From positions 62,001 through 126,000 of the forward strand of contig JAUCBJ010009057.1 of NCBI GenBank assembly GCA_032718475.1: a stretch of 64,000 nt of DNA. Direction: 5' to 3'. Source of the DNA: Nemertoderma westbladi. Its lineage: Eukaryota; Animalia; Xenacoelomorpha. The position numbers and the translations under genes are program-made. Shown piece after piece: positions 3,076-56,307 of the stretch; within the stretch, counting starts at the first letter, position 1; every line of letters starts with the position of its first letter. The notes beneath the pieces were generated by a model. The model was not told the origin of the DNA and made no database searches. It saw only the letters and a program-made list of their open reading frames with translations.

Positions 3076-4246
3076 TGTAAAGGCTTTTGCGGAATTAGCC
3101 GGTTATTTTCCCCGTAAAGTACTCTGTAGTTGGTTTAACAGGCATAAAAGGCCGTGTCCTTACTGTACTGGTGTTTTAGAGGACATAAAAGCCATTTCTT
3201 CTGTATGTGTACTTTAGCGGACATAATTAGCAATTCTATGACGCAATACGCCAGATCCTCTTGAAACAGTGTAGCTACCATGACGACGGCTAACAGCTGA
3301 GGCTGTACACGTGGAGCTTTTTCTTTGTTCTCTGTTCCTTCTTTGTTCGGTCGACCAATCAGAGCGTTTTTTGACTCTGTGTTGGAGATTGTATACAGAA
3401 ACTCGTGGAGTTGAGTCAGTATGTGTTTTTATCCACTGCCTAGAACACCGGCTTTGGAACCTCCGTGTTTCAGTCTTTAGCACAACATTAGTAGGCTTAA
3501 TTATAGAACGTATATCTGTTATCATAACTTAACTCACAAACCATACCAATTCGCATCTCATTAAACATATCAATCAAACTTAACTTAACATTTTACTGCT
3601 ATTTACTGTCGGTTATTCATTATATTTGTTAATGGAATATTATATTTGGAATACTGATAAATAATCAGACACCCCAATCTTCTTGATATACTAAAGGTTA
3701 GAGAGACCGGTTACATATAACGATTGCGACTTACATTAAAGTGGTTTGAAGTGAATCTAATGCTATTTCATAGGCCCTACATGTATTGTCTGTTGTTCTC
3801 TTTATATGTGACTAAAATTAGTGAAGGTCGGCAGATCAGTGTGCAGTATTGTGTATGATTGTGACTGATAACAAAGCATCTCCTAAAGAATGCGCCATAT
3901 ACGTGAATCTATAGCCATCCCGTTGTGTCTAGTTTAAGTCATAACTCTGTTTACATATTTAGAGCGCCACGTCCTAAAGGAACTGTTAATATTTCCCGAA
4001 AGTGAATAATATTTGTCAGAGATTATATATTACGATCAGTCGAATAATACAGTAGGCTTACACCGCAATACGGTTAGGCTTCCGAATCCAGTCTCCCGGG
4101 TATATCCAGCGGGTGAATGATCGCGCATAGACTGGCTTCGGCTAATGTAGTGTATCAAATACTTGTCATAGGCTAAAGACGATCTATTATCTAGAAGACA
4201 TCCCAATTTGGCAGGTTAAACTGCTAAAGGTCTGAAAGCGCGAACA
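3076..4246 (+). repeat. 5' LTR of A1 (1171 bp, TGT...ACA)
   Basis: Near-identical to 13643-14823 and 26666-27846, but lacks one copy of the 10-bp GTGCAGTATT duplication. Confidence 0.97.
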
Positions 4247-4257
4247 ATAACAGATAT
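4247..4257 (+). promoter_or_regulatory. Non-tRNA primer-binding-site candidate ATAACAGATAT (complementary to LTR 3512-3522)
   Basis: Occupies the PBS position directly after the LTR and has no TGG. Exact reverse complement of ATATCTGTTAT at 3512-3522. Same arrangement in A2 (14824-14834 vs 14079-14089). Confidence 0.7.
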
Positions 4258-6543: not shown

Positions 6544-9500
6544 ATGTCTGACACAAAGGAAAACCTGTCAGACAGTCTCCTAGATACAACCATATGTGAC
6601 CCAGACAGGAGTGTGGAACGTGTAGGACCGAAGTTCAACTCACCTCCTACTGTAAGAAAGATCATCCCTCTCGTAGTAATATCAGACCCTAGGCTAGTCC
6701 AACATCGTAGGTCTATCATAGGCACTCGAGCTCAGGTCAAGCGGGACCAAGAAGCAGCGGAACAGCAACAACCCGCGAGCCGAGAACTTATTTCCCAGCG
6801 GCCCGGCAGCTCCAGTAGTGAGGATACTGTGGAGCTGACACCCGAGCGCGGAGCAAAGATGACGGATGCGGTTTATTCGGATCCCCTTCTCATCCTTCCT
6901 GCAGCCGTACTCACTAGGGTATTGATTGCAGTGGAAGAACACCAGATTGATTGGGCGAGAAGTAAGCGATCGACCAAGGATAGTTATGCGGGATACACAA
7001 GGGAAGAACTGAAGTCTATTGTCGAGTCGCAATGGAACTTCCCCGGACCCGGACTCCCGTTTGACTTATCGGAAGCTGCCTGGGAAGACATACACAGGAT
7101 GGGAGTAACAAAAGAAACCATCGATCCAGCTGTGTGGAAGAGGTCAGCAGCAGGATACGTACAGGGATTCTTCAGCTCTATGGAGCGATTAAAGGAACAA
7201 CTGTTTCAACAACCCCAAGGACCTCAAGAGCAGGGACAGCTGCTTTATAGAAAGAATTCTGTGAATCAGGCTAATCTTATCGGCCTTTGAGGAGGCTTCT
7301 AAAAGAAGACAAGACACGTCGTTGCAAGTTGCCGTAAAGACTTGGTTTCAACGGGTGAGTCTCCAGGTTCAAGGAACGGCTCAGTGGAAAGCTCAACTGG
7401 ATGAGCGCTCAACCCATGGAGAATCAACAGACGCTACATTTTCCCAAGTGGAAAGTGAAGCGACAGCAGAGAAACCGCATAAGAGGGATGCTATTGACAT
7501 CTATCTGTCGGACTATCAACGTTTTGTAGGAGATGAAGAGTTGAGGAGAAGACTAGAGGGACTTAGCCCTAATAGTGAAGGAGCCAAGCTTGTGTTGGAC
7601 GCAATCGATGTGGATAGGTTAGCTGCAAACCAAGCTAAATTCAATGAAAGCATCCGCATCGCTAAGGTTCAAGAAGAACAAGTAAAGAAAAAACGTATAG
7701 ATGATAGAAAGACAGCAGCAGCGGCAGTGGCAGCGGCAGAAGCGGAAAGAAAAGCGGCCGAAGCGGAAAGAAAGCTAGCAGCGGCAGAAGCGGAAAGAAA
7801 AGCGGCCGAAGCGGAAAGAAAGCTAGCAGCGGCAGAAGCGGAAAGAAAAGTGGCCGAAGTGGAAAGAAAGCTAGCAGTGGCAGAAGCAGAACGGAGGGCA
7901 TCTGAAGAGACAACCCAACTAGAGTTGGAAAATCTTCAAGAGAGGCAAGACAACTTCAATAAACAGTTAACAGCTAGTAATATGCAGATGATGAGTCGAT
8001 CTACTCCCAAAAGACAGGGATATACATCATCTGAGGAAGGCGATACCACCGATACTGAAGGTGGAGGAAATAGATCTCGTCTCAGCAGACGTAGAAGAAT
8101 GTCCCACCGTCAGAAATTGCCTGATTTGCCCCCAGCTGTTCGAAAACAACTAGTTAGCACAGACTTAGGCAGTACAGAACCCCTAGACCAAATTATTAAA
8201 ATAGACAGACTCCCTACTATAGTAGATGAGCCTGAAATAATTAGGCCTGTTCTCGAAGCCACCACTTTGGTGATAGAGACACCTGTACTCCCAAAACCTA
8301 CCTCTAGATTCCCTTTGCATAGCACTAAGCTACCTGTGCCCAGCAGAACAGCCCAAGAGACAGTTCATGTCCTGGACTCCGAGCGAAATATTAATGATTT
8401 GTCGCCCGTTGTCCCTCGTCCGCCCGCTACAACGTTGGCGGCTCCCGCTTCGGCGGTCGTGTGGGTGGATGAGAGACGGCGGGGGATGGATCTCCTGCTC
8501 GGGCAGATGCAGGAGACTGTTAAGCAGTTCAAGGGCACAGTAAGGGAAAGTAGGTTAGAGTTGCAAGAAGTGCAGCAAAGTATCGCATTAGAACGCGATA
8601 AATTAGTAAATACACAAAAGGGTATACCACCACCCCCGGTAACAATGTGTCAACCTGTTAGGTCTGAAGTATTTCATGCGCAAGGTGTGGAGCCTACACG
8701 CATCTATACTGCTAGCGAAGTAGAAACTCCTATAGTGAACCCTATTAAGGGTAATTATAAACCTGTTGATAATGATATTCCCTATAGACCTGATCATAAT
8801 CCTAGAAATTTATATACCGATAACTCGATATTAAATAACACGATGGCCCAAGAAAGTTTTACGCGTCAAATGGCTAGAACCGAAGCCCGTCAAGCGGTAA
8901 AGGTGGGAGAGATAGTCAAGTTCAATGGAGATGAGATGAAATGGTTACCTTTTAATGAATATTATAAAGATAACATACAGAACTCTGTACTATCTAATGG
9001 AGAGAAACTTAGATTCCTCATCGAGTGCTTGGAAGGATCTCCCAAGTTAATGGCGTTAAAGTTTATTGGACATCCAGACGGATTAAGACAAGTTTGGGAT
9101 ACACTAAACATCAGGTATGGTAATAGGAATAACATAGCTAAATATTTGTATGCAAAATTAGTAGCGCCCCGAAAGTTCATTAGCAGTGGGATAATAGAGT
9201 TTTCCGATGAGATTCAAGAGATCTGTAGACAATTAGATTGGTTAGGTAAGTCTCATGAATATCAGAGTTCTATGGTCATTGGAGCCGTGGCTTCTACTTT
9301 ACCGAAGGGTGGAGTAGGTACACGCTGGGATAAGAAAGTGTTATATATGATGGAACAACAACGACGAGACCCTACCATGGCTGATCTCATGTCATTCTTA
9401 GATGGAGAAGTGAAATTACAGCTCCTAAAACAGTCCAGAGAGAAGACACCGGAAAACAAGGTAAGTGAGAAACCCGTTTCTAGGAGAAAGGTAACACCAG

Positions 9501-12500
9501 TGTGTTATACAGACGACGGCGAAAGCCAGACTTCTCAAGGAGAGGATAGTGGGAAAGACACTGAAAGATCTTATTATGTAAATAAAATGCCTAAAGAACA
9601 GGTAAGTAAATTCAAGTCTCGAACCAATGACAGGAGAGAACAGATAAGAAAAACTCCTCCTACGTCTCCTAAGAGAATTCAGGTGAGAAAGCCCGAAGAA
9701 AGAACGAGTGTGCACAATGTTATTCAAAATAAGGTAAGTAAAATCAAACCGAAATGTGCGCTATGTGACGGGACCCACCGTTTGAATATGTGTGATGAAT
9801 TCCTGAAGAAATCATTAACGGAGAGACGGGAAGTCATGTGGGATAAGCGGTTGTGTTATAATTGCCTCAGACAAGGACACCAACGGCGAACCTGTTACTC
9901 CGACACAAGGTGTGCAAAGTGCGGTGCGAAACATCATATCTTGTTGCACACTGAATTTGAGCGAAACAGCCAGAGTCAGGTAAGTGATTCCGAACTACAT
10001 GTCCAATTCAGTGATGTGAACGACACTGACCAAAGTTCTGAGATGGAAGGATTCTATACAGATGAATTCTCCGACGAAAATGAATTCTGTTACATGATAA
10101 ATACCGCAGTGTATCGAGCACTTACGTATGAAAAAGACACAGACAGCGACCTCACCCTAACTACTTCTGATCGACAACCATCTTGGAAAGCGCCACCTTC
10201 CAATGTAGGAATCCGAGAATTTCCTGTAGTACAGTTAAGGGTCCACGGACCTAAAAGGAGTTATGTAGTGAACGCCCTCCTTGACTCCGGTAGTACAGGA
10301 ACATTCATCGACAAAGAACTAGCCGAAGACATCTTTGCTGGACAACCCAAGTACCGAACTAAGCTAAACATGTCAGGAATTATGCAGGTTTGGAAATCTA
10401 CAGTAATAGCGGATTATTATGTAGGTGCGTTGTCCACCCCCCAGGATGAACTAGGAGAACATAGTATAAGGTCAGTGTGGCGATAAAGAACTTCGCTACC
10501 ACCCAAGTGGAACCTTATAACTGGGATGAGGACGATTTCACCCAGCAGCTGGAAATACCTAGATTCAACACCGATTACCCTGGAGTGCAAATACTCATCG
10601 GTCAAAACACGCATGAAGCGCTCGAGACATTGGAGAAACGGCCTGCTCAACCGCAACCACTACAAGCTTATGCGGGAAGAACTAGAGTGGGTTGGTACTT
10701 TACTGGCCCTTCCCGTAGAACTCTCATGGAAAGATTACCGAAAGACCAGGTATATCAGGTAAGAGAATGGGAAGTCGAGAGCAGTGAGTTAGACGATCCA
10801 ACTGAGGGAACACCATACTCCTCAGATAATGACGATGTCCACCAACTTTTCAATGAGGAGAATACCATTGATCTCCTTAAGGAAAACGAGACTTGGCAAA
10901 ACCAAGTGAACTTATGTCAGCTCCTTCTTCCATCAGAACGAGACGACTATAACGACGAACTTAATGACGTCATTGAACGTTATAATGCCAAGACTCGGGA
11001 TGAACACGCCGTACGATTCTTTACTCAAGAGGCTGTAGAGCCCAATTCCTACGATAAGGCCCTATCGGTAGAGGAAGAAAGAGCCAAGCAGATCCAAGAG
11101 ACAACTACACGTTTTCTTAAAGATCAAGGTAGATATGAGATCGGTCTACCTTTCCGAAAGCGAGAACCAAAGTTCATAAACAACAGACCCTTGGCAGAGA
11201 AAAGAATTGCTCAACTACATCGACGCCTTGCGGCAAATTCTTCAGCTAAAGAAATGTATCAAACGCAGTTGAAGAAATTTATTAGCAAGGGATATGCGGA
11301 GCGAGTACCGGAAGAAACACCTATAACTGAGAGAACGTATTATTTAACTCACCATTACGTTCCCAAACCCGGTAAACCCCATGAAGTATGAGTGGTGTTT
11401 GACGGCTCCGCCCTCTATATGGGCCAATCCCTTAATTCCGAATTGTTACCCGGACCCAACTTACTCCAATCCTTGTTGGGAATACTCTTAAGATTAAGAC
11501 AATATTCAATCGCTTTCGCCTCAGATATAGAAGGCATGTTCTTACAAGTTAAGGCGCTGGATAGGGATCGAGATAGCCTACGATTTCTGTGGTGGCCTGA
11601 AGGAGACCTCAACCAGAAACCAGTGGAGTACTGGATGACCATCCAGGCTTTTGGGATAATCTCAAGCCCTTCAAACGCCTGTTCAGTGGTGCGCACCACT
11701 GCGGATGACAACCGAGAAGCCTTCTCTAAAGAGGTGATTGACAACATCAAACGGGATATATACATGGACGATAATCTAAAGTCCCTTCCATCAGTCGAAG
11801 AAGCCATTGATGTCGCTAAAGGAATGGTAGAGTGCTTAAAAAGAGGTGGATTTCGATTAACTAAATTCACCAGCAACTCCCGTGAGTTTCTGGAGTCGAT
11901 CCCAGTAGAAGATAGAGGAGCGAAAGACCTGGATCTAATCAAAGATGATCTTCCAGAAACCAAGACACTTGGTTTGAAATGGGACACAGAGAGAGATGTC
12001 CTGTTCTTCCAGCTAAAACAGCGAGATAATCCAGTTCGTACTAAACGGATTTGTTTAAGTATCCTGAGCACTTATTTCGATCCATTGGGATTTATTAGCC
12101 CAGTTATATTGATTGCTCGGAGTTTAGTACAACAAATGTGGCTTGAAAACCACTCATGGGACGATCCACTTAAGGGAGAATTATTAAAGAAGTGGATGAA
12201 ATGGGAAGATTCTCTACCAGCCATCGAGAACTTTATAATTTCCCGTTCATATTTTGGTCATGTTCTCCCTACGTATTCCTATCAACTCCATGTGTTTGGA
12301 GACGCCTGCGATATGGGAATAGGTATAGTAGCCTACCTAAGGGTGGAAACTCTGGACGGAATCAAAGTCGCCTTGGTTACCTCTAAGGCATTGATAAACA
12401 ATAAGTTGAAAGTTCCTCGAGCGGAGTTAAAAGCGGCTCTATACGCTACAGCCATCGGCCGGAATGTAACAGAACAGATCGACTATCCACTGGAGAAAAC

Positions 12501-13415
12501 TGTCTATTGGACCGACGCTTTACTCGTGTTGGAGTATATAACTAATGAAGTCTGTCAGTTCAGCGTCTTCGTTACCAACAGAGTAGCCATTATACTCAGT
12601 CGCACAACGATGGATCAATGGAGACATTGCCCCGGAACGATTAATCCAGCAGACATCGCCTCCAGGGGAGCAACTCCACAAGAACTGGTAGATACTCCAG
12701 ACTGGCTAGGTGGACCCGACTTCCTCTACAAAGAAGAAGAAGAATGGCCTCCTCATCTTACTACCACAGAGATTAGACAGGCCAAGGGAGCGGAGAAAGT
12801 CAAACCTAAAACTCGGGCGAGTAAATCGAAGTTATTCAAACCTATGGTAGATCTGTCTGTACTACATACTTCTGGAGACGACGCTTTGGATCACAAACCC
12901 ACAGCCACAAACAAGTTTGTTGTGGAAATCCATGAGAAGGATTGGAAATCTGGAATACCAGACGTCTCGCAAGGACTCTCACCTCTTCTGCAGAGAGCGA
13001 TACATCACTACAGTTCCTGGAATCGGCTCTGTAAGGCCGTTACATATTTAAAGAGATGTTTTCACCATCACTACTCCGGGATGAAGACCAAAAGTGATAC
13101 CGCTCCAATAACATCGGTGCAGGTCCATGTTATTAAAGATCTTCCCAAATATAAGATATCCGACAGGTTTCTGAAGGAGAAGATCAGTTATCAGGAGCAT
13201 GAAGAAACCAACAAACAGATGCTGAGACTCCTGCAATGCTATGAGGATTCCGATAAGTATTTCCTGTTGTTGAGAAATCCGCAGATGCGCTTAAGGGATC
13301 GTTTCTCTAGCACAATGATAGATGGGTTGATACGTGTTGGAGGAAGATTAACGAACGCTCCATTATCCTTTGACACTAAGTTTCCCATACTCATTAGAAA
13401 TCTTGAAATACAAGT
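6544..13415 (+). pseudogene. gag-pol: Disrupted gag-pol of A1 (ORF pieces 6544-7290, 7322-10486, 10477-11391, 11392-13415)
   Basis: Gag core KFNGDEMKWLPF…EKLRFLIECLEG (DUF1759-like). Knuckles CALCDGTHRLNMC, CYNCLRQGHQRRTC, CAKCGAKHH. PR LLDSGS; RT SDIEGMFLQV…YMDD; RNase H LHVFGDA, VPRAEL, WTDA, NPADIASRG. Lesions: frameshift near 7265-7290, 7-bp deletion near 10476 relative to A2, in-frame TGA at 11389-11391, 3' truncation. Confidence 0.95.
7725..7895 (+). repeat. Coding minisatellite in gag (48-bp unit, AAEAERKAAEAERKLA), predicted charged alpha-helix
   Basis: GCGGCAGAAGCGGAAAGAAAAGCGGCCGAAGCGGAAAGAAAGCTAGCA repeated about 3 times in frame. Confidence 0.92.
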
Positions 13416-13417
13416 TT

Positions 13418-13642
13418 GTATTGGTGTATCATGTATGTACGGCAAGTATTGGTGTACCATGTAAGTACCTCAAGTATTGGTGTACCATGTAAGTACCGCA
13501 AGTATTGGTGTATCATGTAAGTACCGCAAGTATTGGTGTACCATGTAAGTACCTCAAGTATTGGTGTATCATGTAAGTACCTCAAGTATTGGTGTATCAT
13601 GTATGTACCGCAAGTATTGGTGTATCATGTATGTACCGCAAG
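13418..13642. repeat. 8-unit satellite block, duplicate of 2851-3075
   Basis: Same order of variant units as the block before LTR A1 (one SNP), at an offset of 10,567 bp. Confidence 0.95.
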
Positions 13643-14823
13643 TGTAAAGGCTTTTGCGGAATTAGCCGGTTATTTTCCCCGTAAAGTACTCTGTAGTTGG
13701 TTTAACAGGCATAAAAGGCCGTGTCCTTACTGTACTGGTGTTTTAGAGGACATAAAAGCCATTTCTTCTGTATGTGTACTTTAGCGGACATAATTAGCAA
13801 TTCTATGACGCAATACGCCAGATCCTCTTGAAACAGTGTAGCTACCATGACGACGGCTAACAGCTGAGGCTGTACACGTGGAGCTTTTTCTTTGTTCTCT
13901 GTTCCTTCTTTGTTCGGTCGACCAATCAGAGCGTTTTTTGACTCTGTGTTGGAGATTGTATACAGAAACTCGTGGAGTTGAGTCAGTATGTGTTTTTATC
14001 CACTGCCTAGAACACCGGCTTTGGAACCTCCGTGTTTCAGTCTTTAGCACAACATTAGTAGGCTTAATTATAGAACGTATATCTGTTATCATAACTTAAC
14101 TCACAAACCATACCAATTCGCATCTCATTAAACATATCAATCAAACTTAACTTAACATTTTACTGCTATTTACTGTCGGTTATTCATTATATTTGTTGAT
14201 GGAATATTATATTTGGAATACTGATAAATAATCAGACACCCCAATCTTCTTGATATACTAAAGGTTAGAGAGACCGGTTACATATAACGATTGCGACTTA
14301 CATTAAAGTGGTTTGAAGTCAATCTAATGCTATTTCATAGGCCCTACATGTATTGTCTGTTGTTCTCTTTATATGTGACTAAAATTAGTGAAGGTCGGCA
14401 GATCAGTGTGCAGTATTGTGCAGTATTGTGTATGATTGTGACTGATAACAAAGCATCTCCTAAAGAATGCGCCATATATGTAAATCTATAGCCATCCCGT
14501 TGTGTCTAGTTTAAGTCATAACTCTGTTTACATATTTAGAGCGCCACGTCCTAAAGGAACTGTTAATATTTCCCGAAAGTGAATAATATTTGTCAGAGAT
14601 TATATATTACGATCAGTCGAATAATACAGTAGGCTTACACCGCAATACGGTTAGGCTTCCGAATCCAGTCTCCCGGGTATATCCAGCGGGTGAATGATCG
14701 CGCATAGACTGGCTTCGGCTAATGTAGTGTATCAAATACTTGTCATAGGCTAAAGACGATCTACTATCTAGAAGACATCCCAATTTGGCAGGTTAAACTG
14801 CTAAAGGTCTGAAAGCGCAAACA
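13643..14823 (+). repeat. 5' LTR of A2 (1181 bp)
   Basis: TGTAAAGG...GCGCAAACA; matches the other two LTRs. Confidence 0.97.
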
Positions 14824-15434
14824 ATAACAGATATTGCTTCTGTATTGCAGTAGGCAATAAAGCTGAAGTACCGGTTAACCGGTACCTAGTAGGCCTGACT
14901 ACCTAACCACCCGGACCGGTACCTACAGCAGTACAGGTACAGCAGTATTATTCGATTGTGATATTGTATACCGGTAGGCTGTTTAAGAGATTAGGGACTG
15001 TACACCCCTTGTTTCTTTTGGAGCTTACTTATTTCTGTCAGTTTTATTTATTTGTAGGCCAGTATTGAGCAGAAGGCGTGTAAGCCTGCTCAGATTGTAC
15101 AGACAATTTGTAGGCTGGACTGTTGTCTGACTGTTGTTAAGTCTGAAGGAACTGTAGTGTGTGTAGAGCGTATGTCCGAAAAAGTACTAGTTAGGAAAGT
15201 AGGGGCTGCCAGTACTGTGAGGTGAACCCCCTCGAAAGAATAAGTCGTACTACTCGGTTAGAACGCATACTAACTAACCATTTCGGAGTCTGCATATACT
15301 GTAGTGTATTTAGGCTTGATAGTAGTCGCCAGCGTTTGGTCTGTACTTTGTTTGTGTAGTCTGTACGGGTAGCATAATATTCTTATTTAGATAATTTGTA
15401 GGCTGGATTTTGCCTGGCTGTTATTAGGTCTGAA

Positions 15435-18400
15435 TTACAGCTCCTAAAACAGTCCAGAGAGAAGACACCGGAAAACAAGGTAAGTGAGAAACCCGTTTCT
15501 AGGAGAAAGGTAACACCAGTGTGTTATACAGACGACGGCGAAAGCCAGACTTCTCAAGGAGAGGATAGCGGGAAAGACACTGAAAGATCTTATTATGTCA
15601 ATAAAATGCCTAAAGAACAGGTAAGTAAATTCAAGTCTCGAACCAATGACAGGAGAGAACAGATAAGAAAAACTCCTCCTACGTCTCCTAAGAGAATTCA
15701 GGTGAGAAAGCCCGAAGAAAGAACGAGTGTGCACAATGTTATTCAAAATAAGGTAAGTAACATCAAACCGAAATGTGCGCTATGTGACGGGACCCACCGT
15801 TTGAATATGTGTGATGAATTCCTGAAGAAATCATTAACGGAGAGACGTGAAGTCATGTGGGATAAGCGGTTGTGTTATAATTGCCTCAGACAAGGACACC
15901 AACGGCGAACCTGTTACTCCGACACAAGGTGTGCAAAGTGCGGTGCGAAACATCATATCTTGTTGCACACTGAATTTGAGCGAAACAGCCAGAGTCAGGT
16001 AAGTGATTCCGAACTACATGTCCAATTCAGTGATGTGAACGACACTGACCAAAGTTCTGAGATGGAAGGATTCTATACAGATGAATTCTCCGACGAAAAT
16101 GAATCCTGTTACATGATAAATACCGCAGTGTATCGAGCACTTACGTATGAAAAAGAAACAGACAGCGACCTCACCCTAACTACTTCTGATCGACAACCAT
16201 CTTGGAAAGCGCCACCTTCCAATGTAGGAATCCGAGAATTTCCTGTAGTACAGTTAAGGGTCCACGGACCTAAAAGGAGTTATGTAGTGAACGCCCTCCT
16301 TGACTCCGGTAGTACAGGAACATTCATCGACAAAGAACTAGCCGAAGACATCTTTGCTGGACAACCCAAGTTCCGAACTAAGCTAAACATATCAGGAATT
16401 ATGCAGGTTTGGAAATCTACAGTAATAGCGGATTATTATGTAGGTGCGTTGTCCACCCCCCAGGATGAACTAGGAGAACATAGTATAAGGTCAGTAAAAA
16501 TGGTGGCGATAAAGAACTTCGCTACCACCCAAGTGGAACCTTATAACTGGGATGAGGACGATTTCACCCAGCAGCTGGAAATACCTAGATTCAACACCGA
16601 TTACCCTGGAGTGCAAATACTCATCGGTCAAAACGCGCATGAAGCGCTCGAGACATTGGAGAAACGGCCTGCTCAACCGCAACCACTACAAGCTCATGCG
16701 GGAAGAACTAGAGTGGGTTGGTACTTTACTGGCCCTTCCCGTAGAACTCTCATGGAAAGATTACCGAAAGACCAGGTATATCAGGTAAGAGAATGGGAAG
16801 TCGAGAGCAGTGAGTTAGACGATCCAACTGAGGGAACACCATACTCCTCAGATAATGACGATGTCCACCAACTTTTCGATGAGGAGAATACCATTGATCT
16901 CCTTAAGGAAAACGAGACTTGGCAAAACCAAGTGAACTTATGTCAGCTCCTTCTTCCATCAGAACGAGACGACTATAACAATTATAACAACTATAACAAT
17001 ACTATAACGACGAACTTAATGACGTCATTGAACGTTATAATGCCAAGACTCGGGATGAACACGCCGTACGATTCTTTACTCAAGAGGCTGTAGAGCCCAA
17101 TTCCTACGATAAGGCCCTATCGGTAGAGGAAGAAAGAGCCAAGCAGATCCAAGAGACAACTACACGTTTTCTTAAAGATCAAGGTAGATATGAGATCGGT
17201 CTACCTTTCCGAAAGCGAGAACCAAAGTTCATAAACAACAGACCCTTGGCAGAGAAAAGAATTGCTCAACTACATCGACGCCTTGCGGCAAATTCTTCAG
17301 CTAAAGAAATGTATCAAACGCAGTTGAAGAAATTTATTAGCAAGGGATATGCGGAGCGAGTACCGGAAGAAACACCTATAACTGAGAGAACGTATTATTT
17401 AACTCACCATTACGTTCCCAAACCCGGTAAACCCCATGAAGTATGAGTGGTGTTTGACGGCTCCGCCCTCTATATGGGCCAATCCCTTAATTCCGAATTG
17501 TTACCCGGACCCAACTTACTCCAATCCTTGTTGGGAATACTCTTAAGATTAAGACAATATTCAATCGCTTTCGCCTCAGATATAGAAGGCATGTTCTTAC
17601 AAGTTAAGGCGCTGGATAGGGATCGAGATAGCCTACGATTTCTGTGGTGGCCTGAAGGAGACCTCAACCAGAAACCAGTGGAGTACTGGATGACCATCCA
17701 GGCTTTTGGGATAATCTCAAGCCCTTCAAACGCCTGTTCAGTGGTGCGCACCACTGCGGATGACAACCGAGAAGCCTTCTCTAAAGAGGTGATTGACAAC
17801 ATCAAACGGGATATATACATGGACGATAATCTAAAGTCCCTTCCATCAGTCGAAGAAGCCATTGATGTCGCTAAAGGAATGGTAGAGTGCTTAAAAAGAG
17901 GTGGATTTCGATTAACTAAATTCACCAGCAACTCCCGTGAGTTTCTGGAGTCGATCCCAGTAGAAGATAGAGGAGCGAAAGACCTGGATCTAATCAAAGA
18001 TGATCTTCCAGAAACCAAGACACTTGGTTTGAAATGGGACACAGAGAGAGATGTCCTGTTCTTCCAGCTAAAACAGCGAGATAATCCAGTTCGTACTAAA
18101 CGGATTTGTTTAAGTATCCTGAGCACTTATTTCGATCCATTGGGATTTATTAGCCCAGTTATATTGATTGCTCGGAGTTTAGTACAACAAATGTGGCTTG
18201 AAAACCACTCATGGGACGATCCACTTAAGGGAGAATTATTAAAGAAGTGGATGAAATGGGAAGATTCTCTACCAGCCATCGAGAACTTTATAATTTCCCG
18301 TTCATATTTTGGTCATGTTCTCCCTACGTATTCCTATCAACTCCATGTGTTTGGAGACGCCAGCGATATGGGAATAGGTATAGTAGCCTACCTAAGGGTG

Positions 18401-20701
18401 GAAACTCCGGACGGAATCAAAGTCGCCTTGGTTACCTCTAAGGCATTGATAAACAATAAGTTGAAAGTTCCTCGAGCGGAGTTAAAAGCGGCTCTATACG
18501 CTACAGCCATCGGCCGGAATGTAACAGAACAGATCGACTATCCACTGGAGAAAACTGTCTATTGGACCGACGCTTTACTCGTGTTGGAGTATATAACTAA
18601 TGAAGTCTGTCAGTTCAGCGTCTTCGTTACCAACAGAGTAGCCATTATACTCAGTCGCACAACGATGGATCAATGGAGACATTGTCCCGGAATGATTAAT
18701 CCAGCAGACATCGCCTCCAGGGGAGCAACTCCGCAAGAACTGGTAGATACTCCAGACTGGCTAGGTGGACCCGACTTCCTCTACAAAGAAGAAGAAGAAT
18801 GGCCTCCTCATCTTACTACCACAGAGATTAGACAGGCCAAGGGAGCGGAGAAAGTCAAACCTATAACTCGGGCGAGTAAATCGAAGTTATTCAAACCTAT
18901 GGTAGATCTGTCTGTACTACATACTTCCGGAGACGATGCTTTGGATCAGAAACCCACAGCCACAAACAAGTTTGTTGTGGAAATCCGTGAGAAGGATTGG
19001 AAATCTGGAATACCAGACGTCTCGCAAGGACTCTCACCTCTTCTGCAGAGAGCGATACATCACTACAGTTCCTGGAATCGGCTCTGTAAGGCCGTTACAT
19101 ATTTAAAATGATGTTTCCACCATCACTACTCCGGGATGAAGACCAAAAGTGATACCGCTCCAATAACATCGGTGCAGGTCCATGTTATTAAAGATCTTCC
19201 CAAATATAAGATATCCGACAGGTTTCTGAAGGAGAAGATCAGTTATCAGGAGCATGAAGAAACCAACAAACAGATGCTGAGACTCCTGCAATGCTATGAG
19301 GATTCCGATAAGTATTTCCTGTTGTTGAGAAATCCGCAGATGCGCTTAAGGGATCGTTTCTCTAGCACAATGATAGATGGGTTGATACGTGTTGGAGGAA
19401 GATTAACGAACGCTCCATTATCCTTTGACACTAAGTTTCCCATACTCATTAGAAATCTTGAAATACAAGTCAAGATGATTGTAGACGTTCACAGCAAACT
19501 TTATCATGCTGGTAGAGAACGAGTTCTTAGCGAAATTCAAACTCGCTATTATTTTTATAAACCCCGTAGAGCTCTGAACCAAGTTCTTAGGAACTGCATA
19601 CCCTGTAGGAAAGCATTCAGTAGGCCTTTAACACAGCGAGAGGCAGAATTACCTAGGGAACGAGTAAGCTTCTATGAACCACCCTTTACTAATACCGGTG
19701 TGGATTTATTTGGCCCTATTGAAGTATATCGTGCTAGGACTATAGTCAAGAGATGGTGTGTCATCTTTGTTTGTATGACTTGTAGAGCTATCCATCTCGA
19801 TATGGTGAACGATTTATCTACCAACAGCTTTCTACTAAGCTTACGACGACAGATCGCTCGCTTTGGCACTAGTAACACGATGAGATCTGATAAGGGAACA
19901 AACTTCATTGGTGCCAACAATGAAATCAAAGCTTACGTCAAAGATTGGAACCAAAGACAGGTGGACGATCAGCTACGAGTAACAGCGTCTAGCTGGACCT
20001 TCAATGCCGCCTACGCCCCTTGGTGGGGAGGAAGTTGGGAGAGATTAATAAGAAGTGTGAAGACAGCATTTCACTTCATAGTGCCTTGCCGCGCGTATCT
20101 CACCGACGAACTTTTGCGGACGTTAATGGAGGAAATCGCCGCCTATCTCAACGAGAGACCGCTTATGCCAGTCTCATCGAGTCCCGATTCCCTGGAAGCG
20201 CTAACACCCGCGCACTTCCTACTGAAGAAACCTGTAGCCATGCTCCCACAATCGGAAATCACAGACGGAGACGAATACTGCCGGCAAACTTGGCAACTCA
20301 TGCAATTGTTATCCCGTCGTTTCTCTGACCATTTCGAGAAACATTACTTGCCCACTCTACAACTTCGAACTAAGTGGTTTGCGCAGCAAGAGAACGTCAG
20401 CGCTGGAGACATGGTTCTTATTGTGGATGTAGATCTTCCACGTAAGCGGTGGCAGACAGGTCGTATCATCGAGACTCACATCTCGGATGACGGTTTGGTG
20501 CGATCGGTAGAACTCGTCGTCATGCGACGTAACTTCAAGAAACCGGGAATTGTCTTCGAGACACAGCAGCTCAATCGCCCAGTTGGTCGCTTATGTTTAC
20601 TGGAAAGAGACAGAGAACTCTCCGGAAACTATGGAAGGCAAGATACTCTTCCCACGACCACCTCCCTAATCCAACAAACATCTAGGGACTCCCCCACTTA
20701 A
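15435..20701 (+). pseudogene. gag-pol: Disrupted gag(3' part)-pol of A2, including a complete integrase (ORF 19136-20701)
   Basis: Same domains as A1. Integrase has HHCC (HSKLYH…CIPC), DDE (VDLFGP, SDKGTNF, WERLIRS) and a BEL-type C-terminal region (RTKW…GDMVLI…DGLVRSV…RPVGRLCLLE). Lesions: loss of 5' gag, frameshifting insertion at ~16980, TGA at 17444-17446 and TGA at 19109-19111. Confidence 0.95.
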
Positions 20702-21249
20702 CAACGGCTGGAGTGGGTGTATGACTATATTTTATATTTGTTTTTATTCTTTTATATTTATGTATGTATTATTATGTAATTTTATTATAATCGTTTTCTT
20801 TAATTTTATTTAGTAGAATGTTATTTTAGCGATTATTTAGTAGATTAGTGCAATATATATTAGCGTTTATTACTTAATTACTTATATATTATATTTAGTG
20901 CGACGGCGAGAAATAATTCTTTTTCTCCTTCCTTACTGTCCGTATTACATTACAAATACGTAACTACAGTAAGATGAAATGTCCGTACTTATTAAAGTAG
21001 AATAAAGCTCCTACTATATTTAAGTATTATTGGTAAGCAGAGTAAAAGGAATACAAAATTCAGATCCTCGTGTCTCGGCTAAACCAAGCTCTGGGTAGAC
21101 CTTGGAAACGACTTGCCTCTTCTCACTGACATTGCTTCGTGCGATATTGCTCTCATACTGTATATTAAATAATACATATAGTAGCGTGATGTCCCTTTAA
21201 CAGTAGCGTATAACGCAAAATAAATCTGTTAAACCCTTTGACCATCTGC

Positions 21250-21525
21250 AATTCTAGTCGATTAAGATATCGCGGCACCCACTGATATACTTGAAAGACA
21301 AAATTCTAGAATCAGTGGTTAACGTCCCCAGACAAGTTCTGGAATAAACTGGTGCCCATCCTAAATATTAATTATTAATATTTACAAATTCTGTCAAATT
21401 TTAGATCCTTTAAAATTCTAGTCTATTAAGATATCGTAGCACTTACCGATACTCTTAAAAGGACAAAATTCCTAGAATCAAGGATCCCAGTCCCCAGACA
21501 TGTTCTGGAATAAAATTGTGTCTAT
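21250..21525 (+). repeat. Diverged ~110-bp direct repeat (spacing ~164 bp) in the spacer between pol and the extra ORF
   Basis: AATTCTAGTC-ATTAAGATATCG…ACAAAATTC…GTCCCCAGACA-GTTCTGGAATAAA occurs at ~21250 and ~21414. Confidence 0.85.
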
Positions 21526-22334
21526 TTAACATTAAATAATAAAATTTACGGGAATAAATTTAAATTCATATATTTAATGAATTTAATAAATTGTCATTTT
21601 TATACAATTTATAATATTCCCAAAATTCCTTTAATTAATAGATCATGGGAGCGGAGATTCACTCTATTAAGTGTATTAGTGTGCGAGAATCTCCAATATA
21701 TAGTCAATAGCCGATAAAATTCATAAAATCATGTATAAAGGGGATATTGACCATTAAAGAATTACTATTAAATAGCATCCCAGATCTGTATGCATGAGAA
21801 TTACCCTAATTCTACCGCTAGCTTTCCATAATGTCACCATGGCAACAACCACGCTAGAATTAGAAGTGAGTTAAAAGAACAATAGAAAGCTTGCCCCATT
21901 GAATAGCATAGGGAATAAATAGCGCACTGCTAGTATCCAAGGATACATAATAAATAAAGTGACATTCTGGAAGGTACTGACTAACGGACAAATGGCCCGA
22001 ATGTGTACAGTTTGTGGCAGTTGTGTTGAATTTGTGCGTTCATAGGTGAATGTTACTGCTAAAGTGTGTTTACAGTAGCTAGTCGCAATTGTGAAAGTAG
22101 CCCTAACTCTCCAGAAAGAACCTGAAGTACATCTAAGCCTTTGGGACGGACAGTGGAGTGACTTGCGCCGGTTATCGTTGTCATTGTGTAGCTACATCGT
22201 TGGCGAAAGCACAGCGACGACGGTACATCGGCGCTGAGGATCTTGCACTGTCCGGGGGCAAAAGAGGGGTAGGCAGCGACGCCCGCTAGCCTAATATATA
22301 AACTCATTATAATATTGATAAACTCATAGCAGAT

Positions 22335-24851
22335 ATGACTGAGTTGATAGAAGATGATCTTGGTATCAGGGAGCGATATACTCTACCTTTACAAGCGTTT
22401 GTCGATAGCTTGATACGCGGCGACGCTGGTCCAACTACTACGGAGGATGATGGTCGTTATATCGAACCGCCAATGTCCCCGGAGCAACTTACGCGTGAAT
22501 TGGATTATAGAAAGTTCACCGCTCGCTATACGCATCGTAATGGTACGTATATGGACTTCTTAACTACCGGCCATCCTATCGATTTACACGATACGGACGA
22601 TGTAGATACCGAAAGGGAAATGGTTTTATTTAAATATCATACCCAGCGGAGTCGGAACGATAAACCGAGAATAGAACACGAGAACTCTATTCGAAACAGA
22701 CTCGAAAGGGAAGACGTTGAAGAGCCGGATAAACGCAGCGACTTCAACGATTATCTGCAATTCCTGAGAGAGACATATCTCAATATTGCCAGCCAACAAA
22801 ATCTCGAAACTCGATATCCTCAAGGTATACATCATGATCCTATGATAGAACTCAAACGACTCTATTTCACTATGATGTATCTTACCGCCGATCGACCGCT
22901 ACCTGTCGTCCCAGATAGCTTCGAACAGATGGAGGAATATTGTACAACTGGAGAACGATCACCCGCGTTTCCCCTGCAGGACGTGCGTCTTTGGTATTAC
23001 TGCGACGAATGCCCTAGACCCAATCAGCAAACGGAAAGACATAAACATCCGCGGAGATGTTGCGCTAAACACAGTTTTACACGATATACTTATGGGAGTT
23101 TCGAGCGAAACCTATTCGACATATCACCTACGGTCGCTCGGCTCAAACGATCCTTGAATAAACCAATGATCAGAGTTCCGGAATACTCGGTCAGACCTCC
23201 TCATTCCTCAGTTAGACCTCAGACTCTTGATCCTAATAGTATCACTGATCCTCCCGAACTGTACTCACTGTTCAAAGATCTAGTGTTACCCGAACAGTTG
23301 ATCGGTGGTACCCCGGTGGTGGGCTCGCTAGATATTCGCCAACCCTACCTAGCCGGATTAGGACGCGGTCATATGATATCGCCGTTTAACCCGTACAACC
23401 ATCCCGGCTTCACCCCAATACAACCTGTTACGGAAGTCGAAGAGAGCGTCGTACGAAACGCGTTAGACTCTATTCGGCAGAAAATCGGAAAGGGAACTTA
23501 CGATTGTTTGGAGAAACGTAAATTGCAGCAACAAGTCCAAGCGGTGAAGGAATTAGTTTTACCCCAGTTCGATAGAGAAATACAAAATCTCGAGGAGGAC
23601 ATCGAACGTGGACGAACCTACTCTTTACAAGAGTTCCTAGATGAGCGTCTACAACTACAAGCGGAGGAAAATCAGCTCGAGGAAAGACATATAGAACTAG
23701 ATGAGAGAGAAGAAGCAGCTTTAGCCCAACCCGAAGCTCAAATCCTTATGACGGATCTCTACTCCAAAACCATCCTTCATCCCTCGATGGTTCCCCATTT
23801 CGGAGACAAACTCTTTGCGACGGTACAACCCCAACCGGTTGATATCAACCTAAGATCTCGAGATCTTATCGCTGACGCTCCCATGTTGCAACGTCCGCCC
23901 ATCGAAGCCGCTCGTGTCGATGGTATACTCGTTGAACCTCCGGACAATAGAGCGGATCTTGTCCGTCGCATGGTACACGATGTAAACATACGCGCTAGAC
24001 CTTTACCGGACTCGTTTTATGGGATCAAAGATCACCCTTATTACGTCAATCTAACACAATATTACATGGTAAAACCAGAAGATCCTACACATAGTCTGAG
24101 GTTTCTACCACTCATAAATCCTCTCGATCTTGTCGAACTCGAACAACTGCAGAAACATCTGGATCAGTTAGTTAAAATAAACTCATTTCGAAAACCATAT
24201 AATGTTTCCAGAATAGAGAAAGAAACAATACCTCCGTATAATCTTGATGGATTCATCAAAACTCGATTAGTACACTGGAATCTTGACGTGTTATTCGAGG
24301 AGGAAAGAATACAACGATATGGAGATGTGGAAACATATACCACACAATATTTAAAGTATAGAGACCTACCTAATGCTAGCGAATGCGCTACCTTGTGGCA
24401 TCCAGTGGGAATGACCCTCGAAAACGCCACTAAAGAGTGGAACGAAACTCTTAACGTTATCGAGATGTATGGAGTTGTCACTTACGATAACGAAGGTAGC
24501 GTTCCGGTTGGAGAACTGGGAACTACGCGGATGATACACATACGAGGACTCGCTGGTTCTACCCACGTATTTACTCGAGCGTGTTCCGATGTGATTGATT
24601 ATTCTTTTGAAACTCTTACTGAGACACAAAAGAAACTCCGACATGGACAATTCGAACTCGCGCAGCGTTACGTCACCGACACCGAGCGCAAACCGGCCAT
24701 GGGTATTGATGGATCGATGTTACCCCAGCCCGTGCTTGAGATGTTGTTAACGAAAGAATCCTTAAAATCGGCTCAGCTGTTTATGGAGATCTACAAAACG
24801 ACTTTCGGAATATGGAGAACATTCCATACCCTTTCGTTGATACTCAGCTGA
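22335..24851 (+). CDS. Extra ORF of element A, N-terminal part (838 aa; unknown function; Cys/His cluster and coiled-coil-like segment)
   Basis: Long open frame between pol and the 3' LTR. Contains CDEC…HKHPRRCCAKH and an E/Q/L-rich helical stretch. No evident signal peptide. Homologous sequence is present in element B. Confidence 0.8.
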   Translation: MTELIEDDLGIRERYTLPLQAFVDSLIRGDAGPTTTEDDGRYIEPPMSPEQLTRELDYRKFTARYTHRNGTYMDFLTTGHPIDLHDTDDVDTEREMVLFKYHTQRSRNDKPRIEHENSIRNRLEREDVEEPDKRSDFNDYLQFLRETYLNIASQQNLETRYPQGIHHDPMIELKRLYFTMMYLTADRPLPVVPDSFEQMEEYCTTGERSPAFPLQDVRLWYYCDECPRPNQQTERHKHPRRCCAKHSFTRYTYGSFERNLFDISPTVARLKRSLNKPMIRVPEYSVRPPHSSVRPQTLDPNSITDPPELYSLFKDLVLPEQLIGGTPVVGSLDIRQPYLAGLGRGHMISPFNPYNHPGFTPIQPVTEVEESVVRNALDSIRQKIGKGTYDCLEKRKLQQQVQAVKELVLPQFDREIQNLEEDIERGRTYSLQEFLDERLQLQAEENQLEERHIELDEREEAALAQPEAQILMTDLYSKTILHPSMVPHFGDKLFATVQPQPVDINLRSRDLIADAPMLQRPPIEAARVDGILVEPPDNRADLVRRMVHDVNIRARPLPDSFYGIKDHPYYVNLTQYYMVKPEDPTHSLRFLPLINPLDLVELEQLQKHLDQLVKINSFRKPYNVSRIEKETIPPYNLDGFIKTRLVHWNLDVLFEEERIQRYGDVETYTTQYLKYRDLPNASECATLWHPVGMTLENATKEWNETLNVIEMYGVVTYDNEGSVPVGELGTTRMIHIRGLAGSTHVFTRACSDVIDYSFETLTETQKKLRHGQFELAQRYVTDTERKPAMGIDGSMLPQPVLEMLLTKESLKSAQLFMEIYKTTFGIWRTFHTLSLILS

Positions 24852-26587
24852 TTGCTCCCTGGGCAGAAGGCCGATGTTTCTTCCGCACCATGTATGCCAA
24901 TACACCCAGCGGCATTACTAAAGTACAACGAACCTCCATCGGACATCTTGCCTTTCAAGAATACGGATGGAATTTCAAGGTTGGAAATCCTATCAATTAC
25001 CAACAAGTATATGGAGACCATTATTCTCGTTTATACTTTGATGGACCATTGACCGCACCTGGCGCCGTGTATAGCTTTATGAGTGTTCCACTTCGTCCCT
25101 CCTTAGCTATATACACGATCTTTGAAAACGCAGCACTTGCCGGTTGGCTAGCCGATGTGTGCAGTCGTACCATACGCGCCCATCCCTTAATACTTGGAAC
25201 CAAACTCGCCAAGTTAGATGAACACAATAAATTCATCCGCTTCGAATGTTTCAGGCGCTTTCTGACTCCGTTCCGTAACGTTGATAGTCAGTTCAAGGAC
25301 CGCGCTCTGACCAAACTCAGCCTAAGAGACTCAGCTGCGGAGAAGCTAAACAGCGCGGGATTTGCCCTCTTTCAGGACGTTTGTATACAGAACTTACATT
25401 CATCTGTTATACAAAGACCCCGAATACCCACGGGTTATTCTGTCGTGGAAGTTCAGACAGTGGGTCCGCTTGCGGAGACAGCCGCACCTACCTCAGCTAT
25501 GCAATTGGAAGACGAACCAATATGCTTAGAATCTGAAGCGATCCAGCCTACAGCACCCCGGAGCAGCGATAACGATTACGTCTTGGAGTGGTATCAAGGT
25601 CCACAATGTCTCACTGCATACGATTATCGACACGCCAACTATGTTTCTCGAAAACGTTGTCGATTATGCGCATCGAGAGACCATGTCACCCCTATGGACT
25701 CAGACGTACCCTGCTCCTATTTCCACGAACAACCGATGATGGAGATCTATTGTGCGTATTGCAGACTTAATAACTCGCATATTTTTGCAGTCTGCCCCCA
25801 ATTTATGACCCAATGCCACCACTGTCAACTTAAAGGACATGCCAGTTATAATTGCCCCTTTAACCGCGATTTAGAAAGCGTAGATGAGATGATTACCCTG
25901 CGCTACATCCGAGCTTGGGAAGCGAACGCGGATTTACATTGTGAGTCCTGCCATCGCTACTACCCTGGACGCTCTTACGAGGGAGTTTACGCGTTCCATC
26001 CTTATTTATTCGCGTCTGTGGAACAAAAAACACGCACACCGAGTTATGAACTAATGAAGCGTGTTGGTGAGTGTATTTCCACCAAATTTGTTCGAAAATA
26101 TCTTAGGAACGTCAATCCTAACGATATTACTTCATACCATTTGATCAATTTCATCCGTCAAGACCCTGAGTATGGCGATTTATTTATCAACTCGCACCCT
26201 GAGTTACAGGAAGTATCTCGACGGCCCTACGAATATCGAGCCCGAGAACGCGAGCTGGAAAGAACCATTAAACCGAGGAAGTTTCTCACCACTCACGGTC
26301 CACCTACCGCCATTGTCCAGACGACCCGTCAAGGACCCGTCGGAGCTGCTGTCCTAAGACGCACCCTAAAGGCCGTTAGACCTCGCTCCACTGAAGTTGA
26401 TATCGATCAACCAGGTACCTCGACCGGCGGATACACCGATCGTAATCCTAAACCTTCTGATGCAATTGTATTGCACCCTTCACCCAGGAGTTATAGCCCT
26501 CCTAGTAAAGTGGCTTGCCCCAAAGAGAAAAGGACTCTTGCTAGCCTCAAAAAACTGCGTAAACGCCGTCCGCGTAAGAAAGACTAA
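24812..26587 (+). CDS. Extra ORF of element A, C-terminal part (591 aa; CCHC zinc knuckles, basic NLS-like tail); probably one ~1,417-aa ORF with the preceding frame
   Basis: CRLCASRDH…C, CAYCRLNNSHIFAVC and canonical CX2CX4HX4C CHHCQLKGHASYNC; ends KKLRKRRPRKKD. One added base (e.g. in the A4 run at 24795-24798) would fuse the two frames. Confidence 0.8.
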   Translation: MENIPYPFVDTQLIAPWAEGRCFFRTMYANTPSGITKVQRTSIGHLAFQEYGWNFKVGNPINYQQVYGDHYSRLYFDGPLTAPGAVYSFMSVPLRPSLAIYTIFENAALAGWLADVCSRTIRAHPLILGTKLAKLDEHNKFIRFECFRRFLTPFRNVDSQFKDRALTKLSLRDSAAEKLNSAGFALFQDVCIQNLHSSVIQRPRIPTGYSVVEVQTVGPLAETAAPTSAMQLEDEPICLESEAIQPTAPRSSDNDYVLEWYQGPQCLTAYDYRHANYVSRKRCRLCASRDHVTPMDSDVPCSYFHEQPMMEIYCAYCRLNNSHIFAVCPQFMTQCHHCQLKGHASYNCPFNRDLESVDEMITLRYIRAWEANADLHCESCHRYYPGRSYEGVYAFHPYLFASVEQKTRTPSYELMKRVGECISTKFVRKYLRNVNPNDITSYHLINFIRQDPEYGDLFINSHPELQEVSRRPYEYRARERELERTIKPRKFLTTHGPPTAIVQTTRQGPVGAAVLRRTLKAVRPRSTEVDIDQPGTSTGGYTDRNPKPSDAIVLHPSPRSYSPPSKVACPKEKRTLASLKKLRKRRPRKKD

Positions 26588-26657: not shown

Positions 26658-26665
26658 GGGAGCGG
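26658..26665 (+). promoter_or_regulatory. Polypurine tract (GGGAGCGG) abutting the 3' LTR
   Basis: Directly precedes TGT of the 3' LTR. Identical in diverged element B (56230-56237, minus strand). Confidence 0.85.
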
Positions 26666-27846
26666 TGTAAAGGCTTTCGCGGAATTAGCCGGTTATTTTC
26701 CCCGTAAAGTACTCTGTAGTTGGTTTAACAGGCATAAAAGGCCGTGTCCTTACTGTACTGGTGTTTTAGAGGACATAAAAGCCATTTCTTCTGTATGTGT
26801 ACTTTAGCGGACATAATTAGCAATTCTATGACGCAATACGCCTGATCCTCTTGAAACAGTGTAGCTACCATGACGACGGCTAACAGCTGAGGCTGTACAC
26901 GTGGAGCTTTTTCTTTGTTCTCTGTTCCTTCTTTGTTCGGTCGACCAATCAGAGCGTTTTTTGACTCTGTGTTGGAGATTGTATACAGAAACTCGTGGAG
27001 TTGAGTCAGTATGTGTTTTTATCCACTGCCTAGAACACCGGCTTTGGAACCTTCGTGTTTCAGTCTTTAGCACAACAGTAGTAGGCTTAATTATAGAATG
27101 TATATCTGTTATCATAACTTAACTCACAAACCATACCAATTCGCATCTCATTAAACATATCAATCAAACTTAACTTAACATTTTACTGCTATTTACTGTC
27201 GGTTATTCATTATATTTGTTGATGGAATATTATATTTGGAATACTGATAAATAATCAGACACCCCAATCTTCTTGATATACTAAAGGTTAGGGAGACCGG
27301 TTACATATAACGATTGCGACTTACATTAAAGTGGTTTGAAGTGAATCTAATGCTATTTCATAGGCCCTACATGTATTGTCTGTTGTTCTCTTTATATGTG
27401 ACTAAAATTAGTGAAGGTCGGCAGATCAGTGTGCAGTATTGTGCAGTATTGTGTATGATTGTGACTGATAACAAAGCATCTCCTAAAGAATGCGCCATAT
27501 CCGTGAATCTATAGCCATCCCGTTGTGTCTAGTTTAAGTCATAACTCTGTTTACATATTTAGAGCGCCACGTCCTAAAGGAACTGTTAATATTTCCCGAA
27601 AGTGAATAATATTTGTCAGAGATTATATATTACGATCAGTCGAATAATACAGTAGGCTTACACCGCAATACGGTTAGGCTTCCGAATCCAGTCTCCCGGG
27701 TATATCCAGCGGGTGAATGATCGCGCATAGACTGGCTTCGGCTAATGTAGTGTATCAAATACTTGTCATAGGCTAAAGACGATCTATTATCTAGAAGACA
27801 TCCCAATTTGGCAGGTTAAACTGCTAAAGGTCTGAAAGCGCGAACA
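26666..27846 (+). repeat. 3' LTR of element A (1181 bp)
   Basis: TGTAAAGG...GCGCGAACA followed by the GCAAG TSD and satellite. Confidence 0.98.
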
Positions 27847-56229: not shown

Positions 56230-56307
56230 CCGCTCCCAGAAAATGGGATTTAATACTATAAAATATAAAAAATCACAGTTTCTAAAATATAAAAATACTC
56301 TAAACAG

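Follow-up and report, generated by a model that had tools for sequence, protein, structure and literature searches.

What does a BEL/Pao long terminal repeat (LTR) retrotransposon encode in the position of env, when the product is not an envelope (Env) glycoprotein? The question is raised by a window of 64,000 nt of Nemertoderma westbladi (contig JAUCBJ010009057.1, positions 62,001-126,000, forward strand), in which an element of this superfamily carries a large third open reading frame (ORF3) between pol and the 3' LTR. ORF3 likely encodes a non-canonical member of the DEDDy (RNase D/WRN-like) exonuclease family, whose activity is predicted only, followed by zinc knuckles. The exonuclease call is a modest one, resting on one relative and modest scores. 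An earlier note on this DNA missed this domain, which is likely the core of the protein, straddles a break between two reading frames and ties ORF3 to a known class of ORF3 cargo.

ORF3 begins 1.6 kb past the integrase stop codon (20701) and ends before the purine tract and the 3' LTR. The two overlapping frames described in the earlier note, of 838 aa (frame A) and 591 aa (frame B), were confirmed by their coordinates; they lie in different reading frames, with the break falling within their overlap, and far exceed the longest stop-free frame obtained by chance (223 aa in 500 shuffles of the region). The joined length of 1,417 aa is arithmetic only, with no fused protein built. No membrane segment was found in either frame, with best 19-residue Kyte-Doolittle means of 1.07 in frame A and 1.19 in frame B, in agreement with the non-Env character proposed before, and identity as an Env glycoprotein was rejected on this absence of hydrophobic segments. 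Neither frame showed a Pfam or PDB match to F, gB or Gc fusogens, the models being too poor for fold comparison.

An exhaustive search with frame B against 1.84 billion protein representatives gave a single match (E=4.3e-5), an unnamed singleton protein of 648 aa from a 9.4-kb ENA contig, here called P0001. It aligns to residues 2-140 of frame B with 30% identity (pairwise E=5e-12, z=24, reached by 0 of 1000 shuffles) and also to the frame B knuckles (z=7.8), and shows the same order of parts, an exonuclease domain and then knuckles. P0001 in turn aligns to Escherichia coli RNase D with a pairwise E of 7e-4 and weakly to PF01612 (E=0.2). A DEDDy profile was built from 12 RNase D or polymerase exonuclease domains (from two of 80 loci and ten of the 30 matches listed). 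P0001 scored 11.0 bits against it and frame B 4.2 bits, in the Exo II region, neither score being reached by any of 100 shuffles, while six gag/pol control frames scored -4.5 or less or gave no match. The pair of P0001 and frame B aligned to the profile by hhalign (81%, E=1.2e-5) over the stretch between Exo I of P0001 and Exo II, both included.

At the level of sequence, the Exo II region is homologous to RNase D, and its Asp stands in the context expected of the DEDDy family. Exo III appears well placed through P0001: of the expected Y-x3-D, the register and the Tyr are kept, and Asp is replaced by Glu. For Exo I, we infer a site in frame A. Candidate sites were ranked from the reference motifs alone over eight frames of the window, and the margins of the first-ranked sites were small (8.2 against 6.2 for Exo I, and 7.2 against 5.9 for Exo III). 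A second D-x-E candidate, A782, was rejected, being fourth of 23 and too near Exo II. Because the candidate Exo I lies in frame A and Exo II and Exo III in frame B, a single gene likely underlies both frames and is interrupted within the exonuclease domain in this copy; the presence of motifs on both sides of the break is an independent argument for one gene.

Several results speak against this identification. Frame A alone gave no match of the hidden Markov model (HMM) profile of the DEDDy family and only 0.3% in hhalign, its alignment with P0001 was not significant (z=-0.8), and Exo I can be placed only if ~30 residues are inserted compared with P0001. No exonuclease match was found in Pfam or PDB for either frame, the Glu for Asp in Exo III is common to ORF3 and P0001, and P0001 is the sole relative found.

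Other searches added little. PHROGs and NCBIfam gave nothing useful for the ORF3 frames, and word-index searches gave no match for frame A among longer and near-length proteins or for frame B among proteins of 1,078 aa or longer. Scans for related loci were empty for frame B and P0001 in metagenome contigs, for frame A and P0001 in viral contigs and for P0001 in phages. In the Atlas, frame A had no usable match and frame B only knuckle-type leads below 0.9, including a cluster of 1,277 aa with an AIR2-like ZnK4 on 28% of its members (0.77). Single-sequence models of the separate frames, between which the domain is split, reached predicted local distance difference test (pLDDT) values of 32.5 and 35.6, and fold searches with the frame A model returned generic helical bundles only (best Z 8.5) or meaningless matches.

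The remainder of the protein runs from an acidic N-terminus to a basic C-terminus. The Cys/His cluster of the earlier note was located in frame A, the coiled-coil-like region corresponds to residues ~370-462 of frame A, the only part that AlphaFold modelled confidently, as helices, and the tail resembling a nuclear localisation signal (NLS) is present as a basic motif. Three tandem knuckles are also present as described, although only one of them is a canonical CCHC. The AIR1/AIR2 proteins of TRAMP have four to five canonical knuckles and AIR-specific motifs, which is not the arrangement found here, and the match to AIR2 was weak (E=4.4, or 0.04 with the pair profile). The proposal of a nuclear nucleic-acid-binding factor divides in two: nucleic-acid binding is supported by the knuckles and the RNase D-like domain, and nuclear localisation is predicted from the NLS-like motif only.

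On balance, and by a small preponderance only, we hold it probable that ORF3 is an accessory gene of exonuclease-knuckle identity with a general trans-acting role in trimming or shielding RNA 3' ends. None of the results bears directly on the biological role of ORF3, and the specific role that we infer is the following. ORF3 would encode a soluble RNA-binding protein with a coiled coil, then the DEDDy exonuclease domain, zinc knuckles and a basic tail. The knuckles would grip single-stranded RNA, and the DEDDy fold would engage RNA 3' ends, trimming or shielding the RNA of the element or host small RNAs, by which the long transcript of the element would survive nuclear surveillance and silencing by Piwi-interacting RNAs (piRNAs). 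The protein may be translated from an RNA of its own, made by splicing or from an internal promoter, and would act in trans, probably in the nucleus. A TATA-like run and AG dinucleotides are found just upstream of the ORF3 ATG, in the spacer.

It is unlikely, although it deserves weight, that the DEDDy fold is catalytically dead and serves as an RNA-binding adaptor or decoy in transport, ribonucleoprotein assembly or titration of piRNA factors. Egalitarian is a catalytically dead DEDDy RNA-binding adaptor of this kind. Maelstrom and EXD1 are likewise DEDDy folds described as RNA-binding adaptors or decoys without catalysis (PMC5408684, in part; here and below, "in part" marks a source available to us in part). 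The loss of the Exo III Asp in ORF3 and P0001, the divergent Exo I, and a coiled coil and knuckles that fit a scaffold favour such an adaptor; however, four acidic positions and the Exo III Tyr are retained in proteins only ~30% identical, which is more typical of a metal site that has been kept.

The probable exonuclease-knuckle gene is carried by an element inserted within a 28-bp satellite, which occupies positions 1-3076, 13418-13643 and 27847-55029, roughly half of the window. The element contains three LTR copies of 1.17-1.18 kb each that are 98.5-99% identical, and a 5-bp target duplication flanks the starts of LTR1 and LTR2 and the end of LTR3. Its order is LTR1, 5' region, a gag-pol cut within pol, short satellite, LTR2, a second gag-pol, spacer, ORF3, purine tract and LTR3. 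Assignment to BEL/Pao is supported by Pao-type gag and pol domains in the order protease, reverse transcriptase, RNase H and integrase (PR-RT-RH-IN), with Pfam matches to DUF1759 (4.5e-11), Peptidase_A17 (1e-36), Integrase_H2C2 (2.7e-7) and DUF5641 (4.4e-20), and by TG...CA LTRs, a purine tract and the target-site duplication. The sum of non-redundant spans gives a length of ~18.7 kb, outside the 4.2-10 kb that the International Committee on Taxonomy of Viruses (ICTV) gives for Belpaoviridae, together with an 18-nt tRNA-Arg/Gly primer site (PMC8742986). The doubled layout is either a partial tandem duplication or an assembly join. At 13418-15434, eight satellite units and the second LTR break pol, and the second unit, after the satellite at 13418-13643, begins anew at a copy of the 5-bp target flank and lacks most of the 5' region and gag through deletion. 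The long non-coding regions of the element also contain internal tandem duplications at 4524-5104 (~288 bp), 6042-6396 (~119 bp) and 21250-21549 (~164 bp).

Table 1. Features of the window, with positions counted from its first nucleotide.
Feature	Position	Strand	Basis or remark
ORF3 frame A, 838 aa from ATG	22335-24851	+	
Cys/His cluster, CX2C...H...CC	23001-23063	+	frame A motif
Helical bundle and coiled coil, frame A aa 370-462	23442..23720	+	AlphaFold; pN/pS 0.27 vs element B (184 nt compared)
Candidate Exo I, D718-x-E720 of frame A	24486..24494	+	rank 1 of 23 D-x-E sites; missed by HMM and hhalign
ORF3 frame B, 615 aa between stops (591 aa if counted from the ATG at 24812)	24740-26587	+	
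Exo II region, frame B residues 4-39, Asp at 24788-24790	24749..24856	+	aligned with RNase D; 4.2 bits, 0/100 shuffles; hhalign E=5.8e-4
Exo III, Y125-x3-E129 of frame B (Glu where DEDDy has Asp)	25112..25126	+	rank 1 of 30 Y-x3-[DE] sites
Three tandem zinc knuckles, one canonical CCHC	25658..25855	+	motifs; zf-CCHC_3 E=6e-4 (below cut-off)
Knuckle 1, CX2CX4HX9C	25658-25714	+	
Knuckle 2, CX2CX5HX4C	25751-25795	+	
Knuckle 3, canonical CX2CX4HX4C	25814-25855	+	
Basic NLS-like C-terminus	26549-26584	+	motif only
LTR1 (5' LTR), TG...CA, in 28-bp satellite	3076..4246	+	LTR identity
Candidate 11-nt self-primer, LTR position 437-447	3512..3522 (also 14079-14089, 27102-27112)	+	fully complementary to the 11 nt that follow the 5' LTR
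Primer-binding-site position directly after LTR1, not starting TGG	4247..4257 (also 14824-14834)	+	
First gag-pol copy: DUF1759, protease, RT, Peptidase_A17	6544..13415	+	frameshifts and one stop; ended by satellite and LTR2
LTR2 of partial tandem duplication (or assembly join)	13643..14823	+	
Second gag-pol copy, 5'-deleted, ending with integrase (H2C2, DUF5641)	15433..20701	+	lesions too
AT-rich non-coding spacer	20702..22334	+	indel-rich among copies
Short purine tract ahead of 3' LTR	26658..26665	+	
LTR3 (3' LTR)	26666..27846	+	
Element B: diverged LTR and two broken ORF3 remnants	55030..56648	-	remnants joined over a 2.7-kb deletion

The element also departs from the ICTV description in its predicted priming. 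No TGG-type tRNA primer site was found after LTR1 or LTR2. Instead, as in Tf1-type elements, the primer site adjoins the LTR and can pair with part of its interior: the 11-nt complement is present in all three LTRs and was obtained in three of 3000 shuffles, and only two of the 2,287 11-mers in the 5' region are matched by a complement in the LTR. In the predicted fold of an RNA begun at LTR position 437, a start chosen by us, nine of the 11 nt pair with the primer site whether the minimum-energy or the centroid fold is taken, with an overall z of only -0.93. The LTR of element B, a diverged element on the opposite strand, has its best match, with two mismatches, at position 441, close to the corresponding site, in a stretch whose flanks are ~50% identical. 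Against self-priming, no TATA box was found at -30 of LTR position 437. The element likely primes its own reverse transcription without a tRNA, as a candidate judged from complementarity, with a half-tRNA primer as the alternative. In the predicted fold, a hairpin at 4255-4280, directly 3' of the primer site, competes for the last two primer-site bases.

This signature enters a second alternative for ORF3, that the exonuclease is active in the particle while reverse transcription proceeds, where it would proofread or trim cDNA or the self-primer and so help an element of twice the usual size to replicate. The ~18.7-kb span against 4.2-10 kb in the family, the 11-nt self-priming signature, and the DEDDy ORFs that giant Terminons also carry (according to a source available in part) are consistent with it. 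We consider it improbable, however: the NLS-like tail suggests a different site of action, packaging of the protein is a supposition, and Tf1, the first self-primer shown, comes with no mention of such an ORF in the available parts of the sources.

To follow ORF3 among copies of the family, public contigs from four of seven listed sequencing runs, one of the four being of a second organism, were compared with the window, and depth was not used as a measure of copy number. All 30 bins have depth in the four runs, including that of the second organism. Among the pieces listed, 19 of the 24 lying wholly inside ORF3 are gap-free at ~8-15% divergence, with pieces at 10-14% divergence gap-free across 370-540 nt, and gaps are present in each of the three pieces that are non-coding throughout or for the most part. 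The 12 best indels (of which three rows are probably one event; 111 more exist) all fall outside coding DNA, which makes up 67% of the stretch (naive P=1.7e-6). Both pieces that span the overlap of frames A and B have one gap there, of a size consistent with an unbroken frame (two of the 32 listed, with 89,329 more). The element is young and its BEL/Pao family high-copy and recently active, and ORF3 is spread over many copies of the family, together with internal-deletion derivatives. Because deletions of 2.7-2.8 kb inside ORF3 are present in all four runs, ORF3 is likely dispensable in cis. Recurrent deletion joints inside ORF3, at 22362-22572 and 22702-25507, are common to runs of the two organisms, and such shared joints point to old non-autonomous subfamilies. 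Joints starting with GT near 22362-22428 were rejected as introns, as they occur in DNA-type runs.

The claim of the earlier note that ORF3 is a stable component of the family therefore stands on the public contigs, and much less on element B, from which it had been drawn. Element B retains 184 and 156 aligned nt (340 in total) of the 4.25-kb ORF3, with four in-frame stops and frame changes, and was rejected as an intact second allele on these lesions and the 2.7-kb deletion. It is a decayed deletion derivative, because its junction is identical to a joint, 23696-to-26425, that runs X1 and X3 also show, and gives weak evidence of ORF3 conservation. The test of selection that the note had proposed gave a mixed outcome: the ratio of nonsynonymous to synonymous differences (pN/pS) against element B is 0.27 in the coiled coil and 0.40 when pooled.

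Other counts weigh on the opposite side. The pN/pS in the tail of ORF3 is 1.06, and pooling the regions gives only a weak test (P=0.0005-0.054, according to the null used). Among the variants listed, only five of 13 in ORF3 are synonymous, compared with 13 of 20 in pol and with a synonymous share of 22-30% expected by chance (33 of the 40 variant rows listed, after dropping seven non-coding ones, with 1,787 more). The gap in the overlap is missing from the 12 leading indels (111 more exist), and only two of the 32 rows listed extend across the overlap. The weak synonymous bias and the common internal deletions would suit two separate ORFs, a programmed frameshift or a neutral captured fragment. 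We regard this as quite improbable, since the domain motifs are divided between the frames and the 10-14%-diverged pieces remain gap-free. A programmed -1 frameshift was rejected on the sole slippery heptamer of the overlap (24829), which is out of phase with frame A and 3' of Exo II.

The least probable of the readings is that the ORF3 protein directs integration, by tethering, to the 28-bp satellite or to satellite chromatin, a targeting which the earlier note had suggested and which finds no support beyond location: elements A (the ORF3 carrier) and B both lie in satellite, and Bel-Pao elements are frequent in metazoan satellite arrays, but two insertions in a half-satellite window are uninformative, no chromatin-reader or DNA-targeting domain was found in Pfam searches of the ORF3 frames, and the centrophilic targeting described maps to integrase (10.64898/2026.09.17.752431, in part). 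The satellite at 27847-55029 shows 41- and 69-bp variants of the 28-bp unit in a higher-order pattern recurring every ~3-6 kb, with a constant GC skew of ~+0.2. Beyond it, a third BEL/Pao-like element, GC- and purine-rich, abuts element B at 56650-64000 on the + strand, with RT motifs, several frameshifts in G runs and a gag that is long and repetitive; no self-complementary match of at least 10 nt was found in its 5' part.

An accessory exonuclease-knuckle gene of this kind would mean that exonuclease ORF3 cargo, described from gypsy-type elements of rotifers, also occurs in another LTR superfamily, here with a new domain arrangement and in a high-copy, recently active family. The question posed in 2017 of what such nucleases do for the element becomes testable through its many natural copies and deletion derivatives, and if the reading is true, an element-encoded trimmer with RNA-binding knuckles is a candidate animal counter-silencing factor. 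A bolder composite is possible but doubtful as a whole: an undescribed giant (~19 kb), tRNA-independent BEL/Pao lineage, in which env would be replaced by an active 1,400-aa D-E-D-E exonuclease-knuckle protein that mimics the host Rrp6/TRAMP or piRNA-trimming machinery, for counter-silencing or self-primer processing. No description of an extra exonuclease ORF or of self-priming in BEL/Pao was found in the literature, in a coverage that omitted most subscription papers and Repbase reports.

Compared with Belpaoviridae, the element shows the same DUF1759 gag, PR-RT-RH-IN order, Peptidase_A17, DUF5641, ~1.2-kb TG...CA LTRs and third ORF in the env position; it differs in its length and in lacking a tRNA-type primer site (PMC8742986). 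In the env-carrying roo, Tas and mosquito elements the third ORF is a glycoprotein, whereas here it is not (PMC8742986, PMC13524379, in part). Self-priming has been described for Tf1, Tj1 and sushi, and predicted for Tcn1 and TAR (PMC4600332, PMC6317226, PMC3601003, in part). In Tf1, Tj1 and sushi the primer site likewise abuts the 5' LTR and is complementary to the LTR interior (PMC4600332, PMC6317226, in part); these are Ty3/gypsy chromoviruses, with self-priming also predicted in some plant copia lineages, whereas here the element is BEL/Pao and the transcription start is a presumed one.

Parts of ORF3 recall other mobile elements. Burro giant gypsy elements have AIR1 and Smc motifs (PMC6431247), and are alike in bringing knuckles or coiled coils into mobile elements; plant gypsy elements have AIR1 domains (PMC9289625), resembling the knuckles; and Dada DNA transposons have a DEDDy domain (PMC3706591). 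These belong to other superfamilies, with the domains inside a polyprotein or transposase, and an exonuclease and knuckles in one ORF3 are not described in the available parts of these sources. P0001 shares with frame B (28-32% identity) a DEDDy domain with a Y-x3-E Exo III, a linker and tandem knuckles, and differs in being without the long N-terminal region of frame A; ORF3 may belong to a wider mobile exonuclease-knuckle family that P0001 represents.

The closest known system is found in bdelloid rotifers, where DEDDy ORF3s are carried by Juno and Vesta LTR retrotransposons and by Terminons (Rodriguez et al. 2017, PMC5408684, in part). Roles in RNA 3' processing or related to silencing were suggested for these proteins, which have a DEED tetrad and for which no activity is reported as assayed in the part available, and the sequenced env-like and GDSL ORF3s showed mostly neutral variation within the genome (PMC5408684, in part). 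As here, the rotifer ORF3 is an ORF of its own, lies 3' of pol, is not an Env, contains a DEDDy domain like that of RNase D with an altered acidic tetrad, and lacks a membrane segment. Compared by description, the two differ in that the rotifer carriers are Ty3/gypsy-type or Penelope-like and their ORF3 has a DEED tetrad and no coiled coil, whereas the ORF3 of this BEL/Pao element has a predicted D-E-D-E tetrad and, in a protein of ~1,400 aa, combines the domain with CCHC knuckles, a basic tail and a coiled coil.

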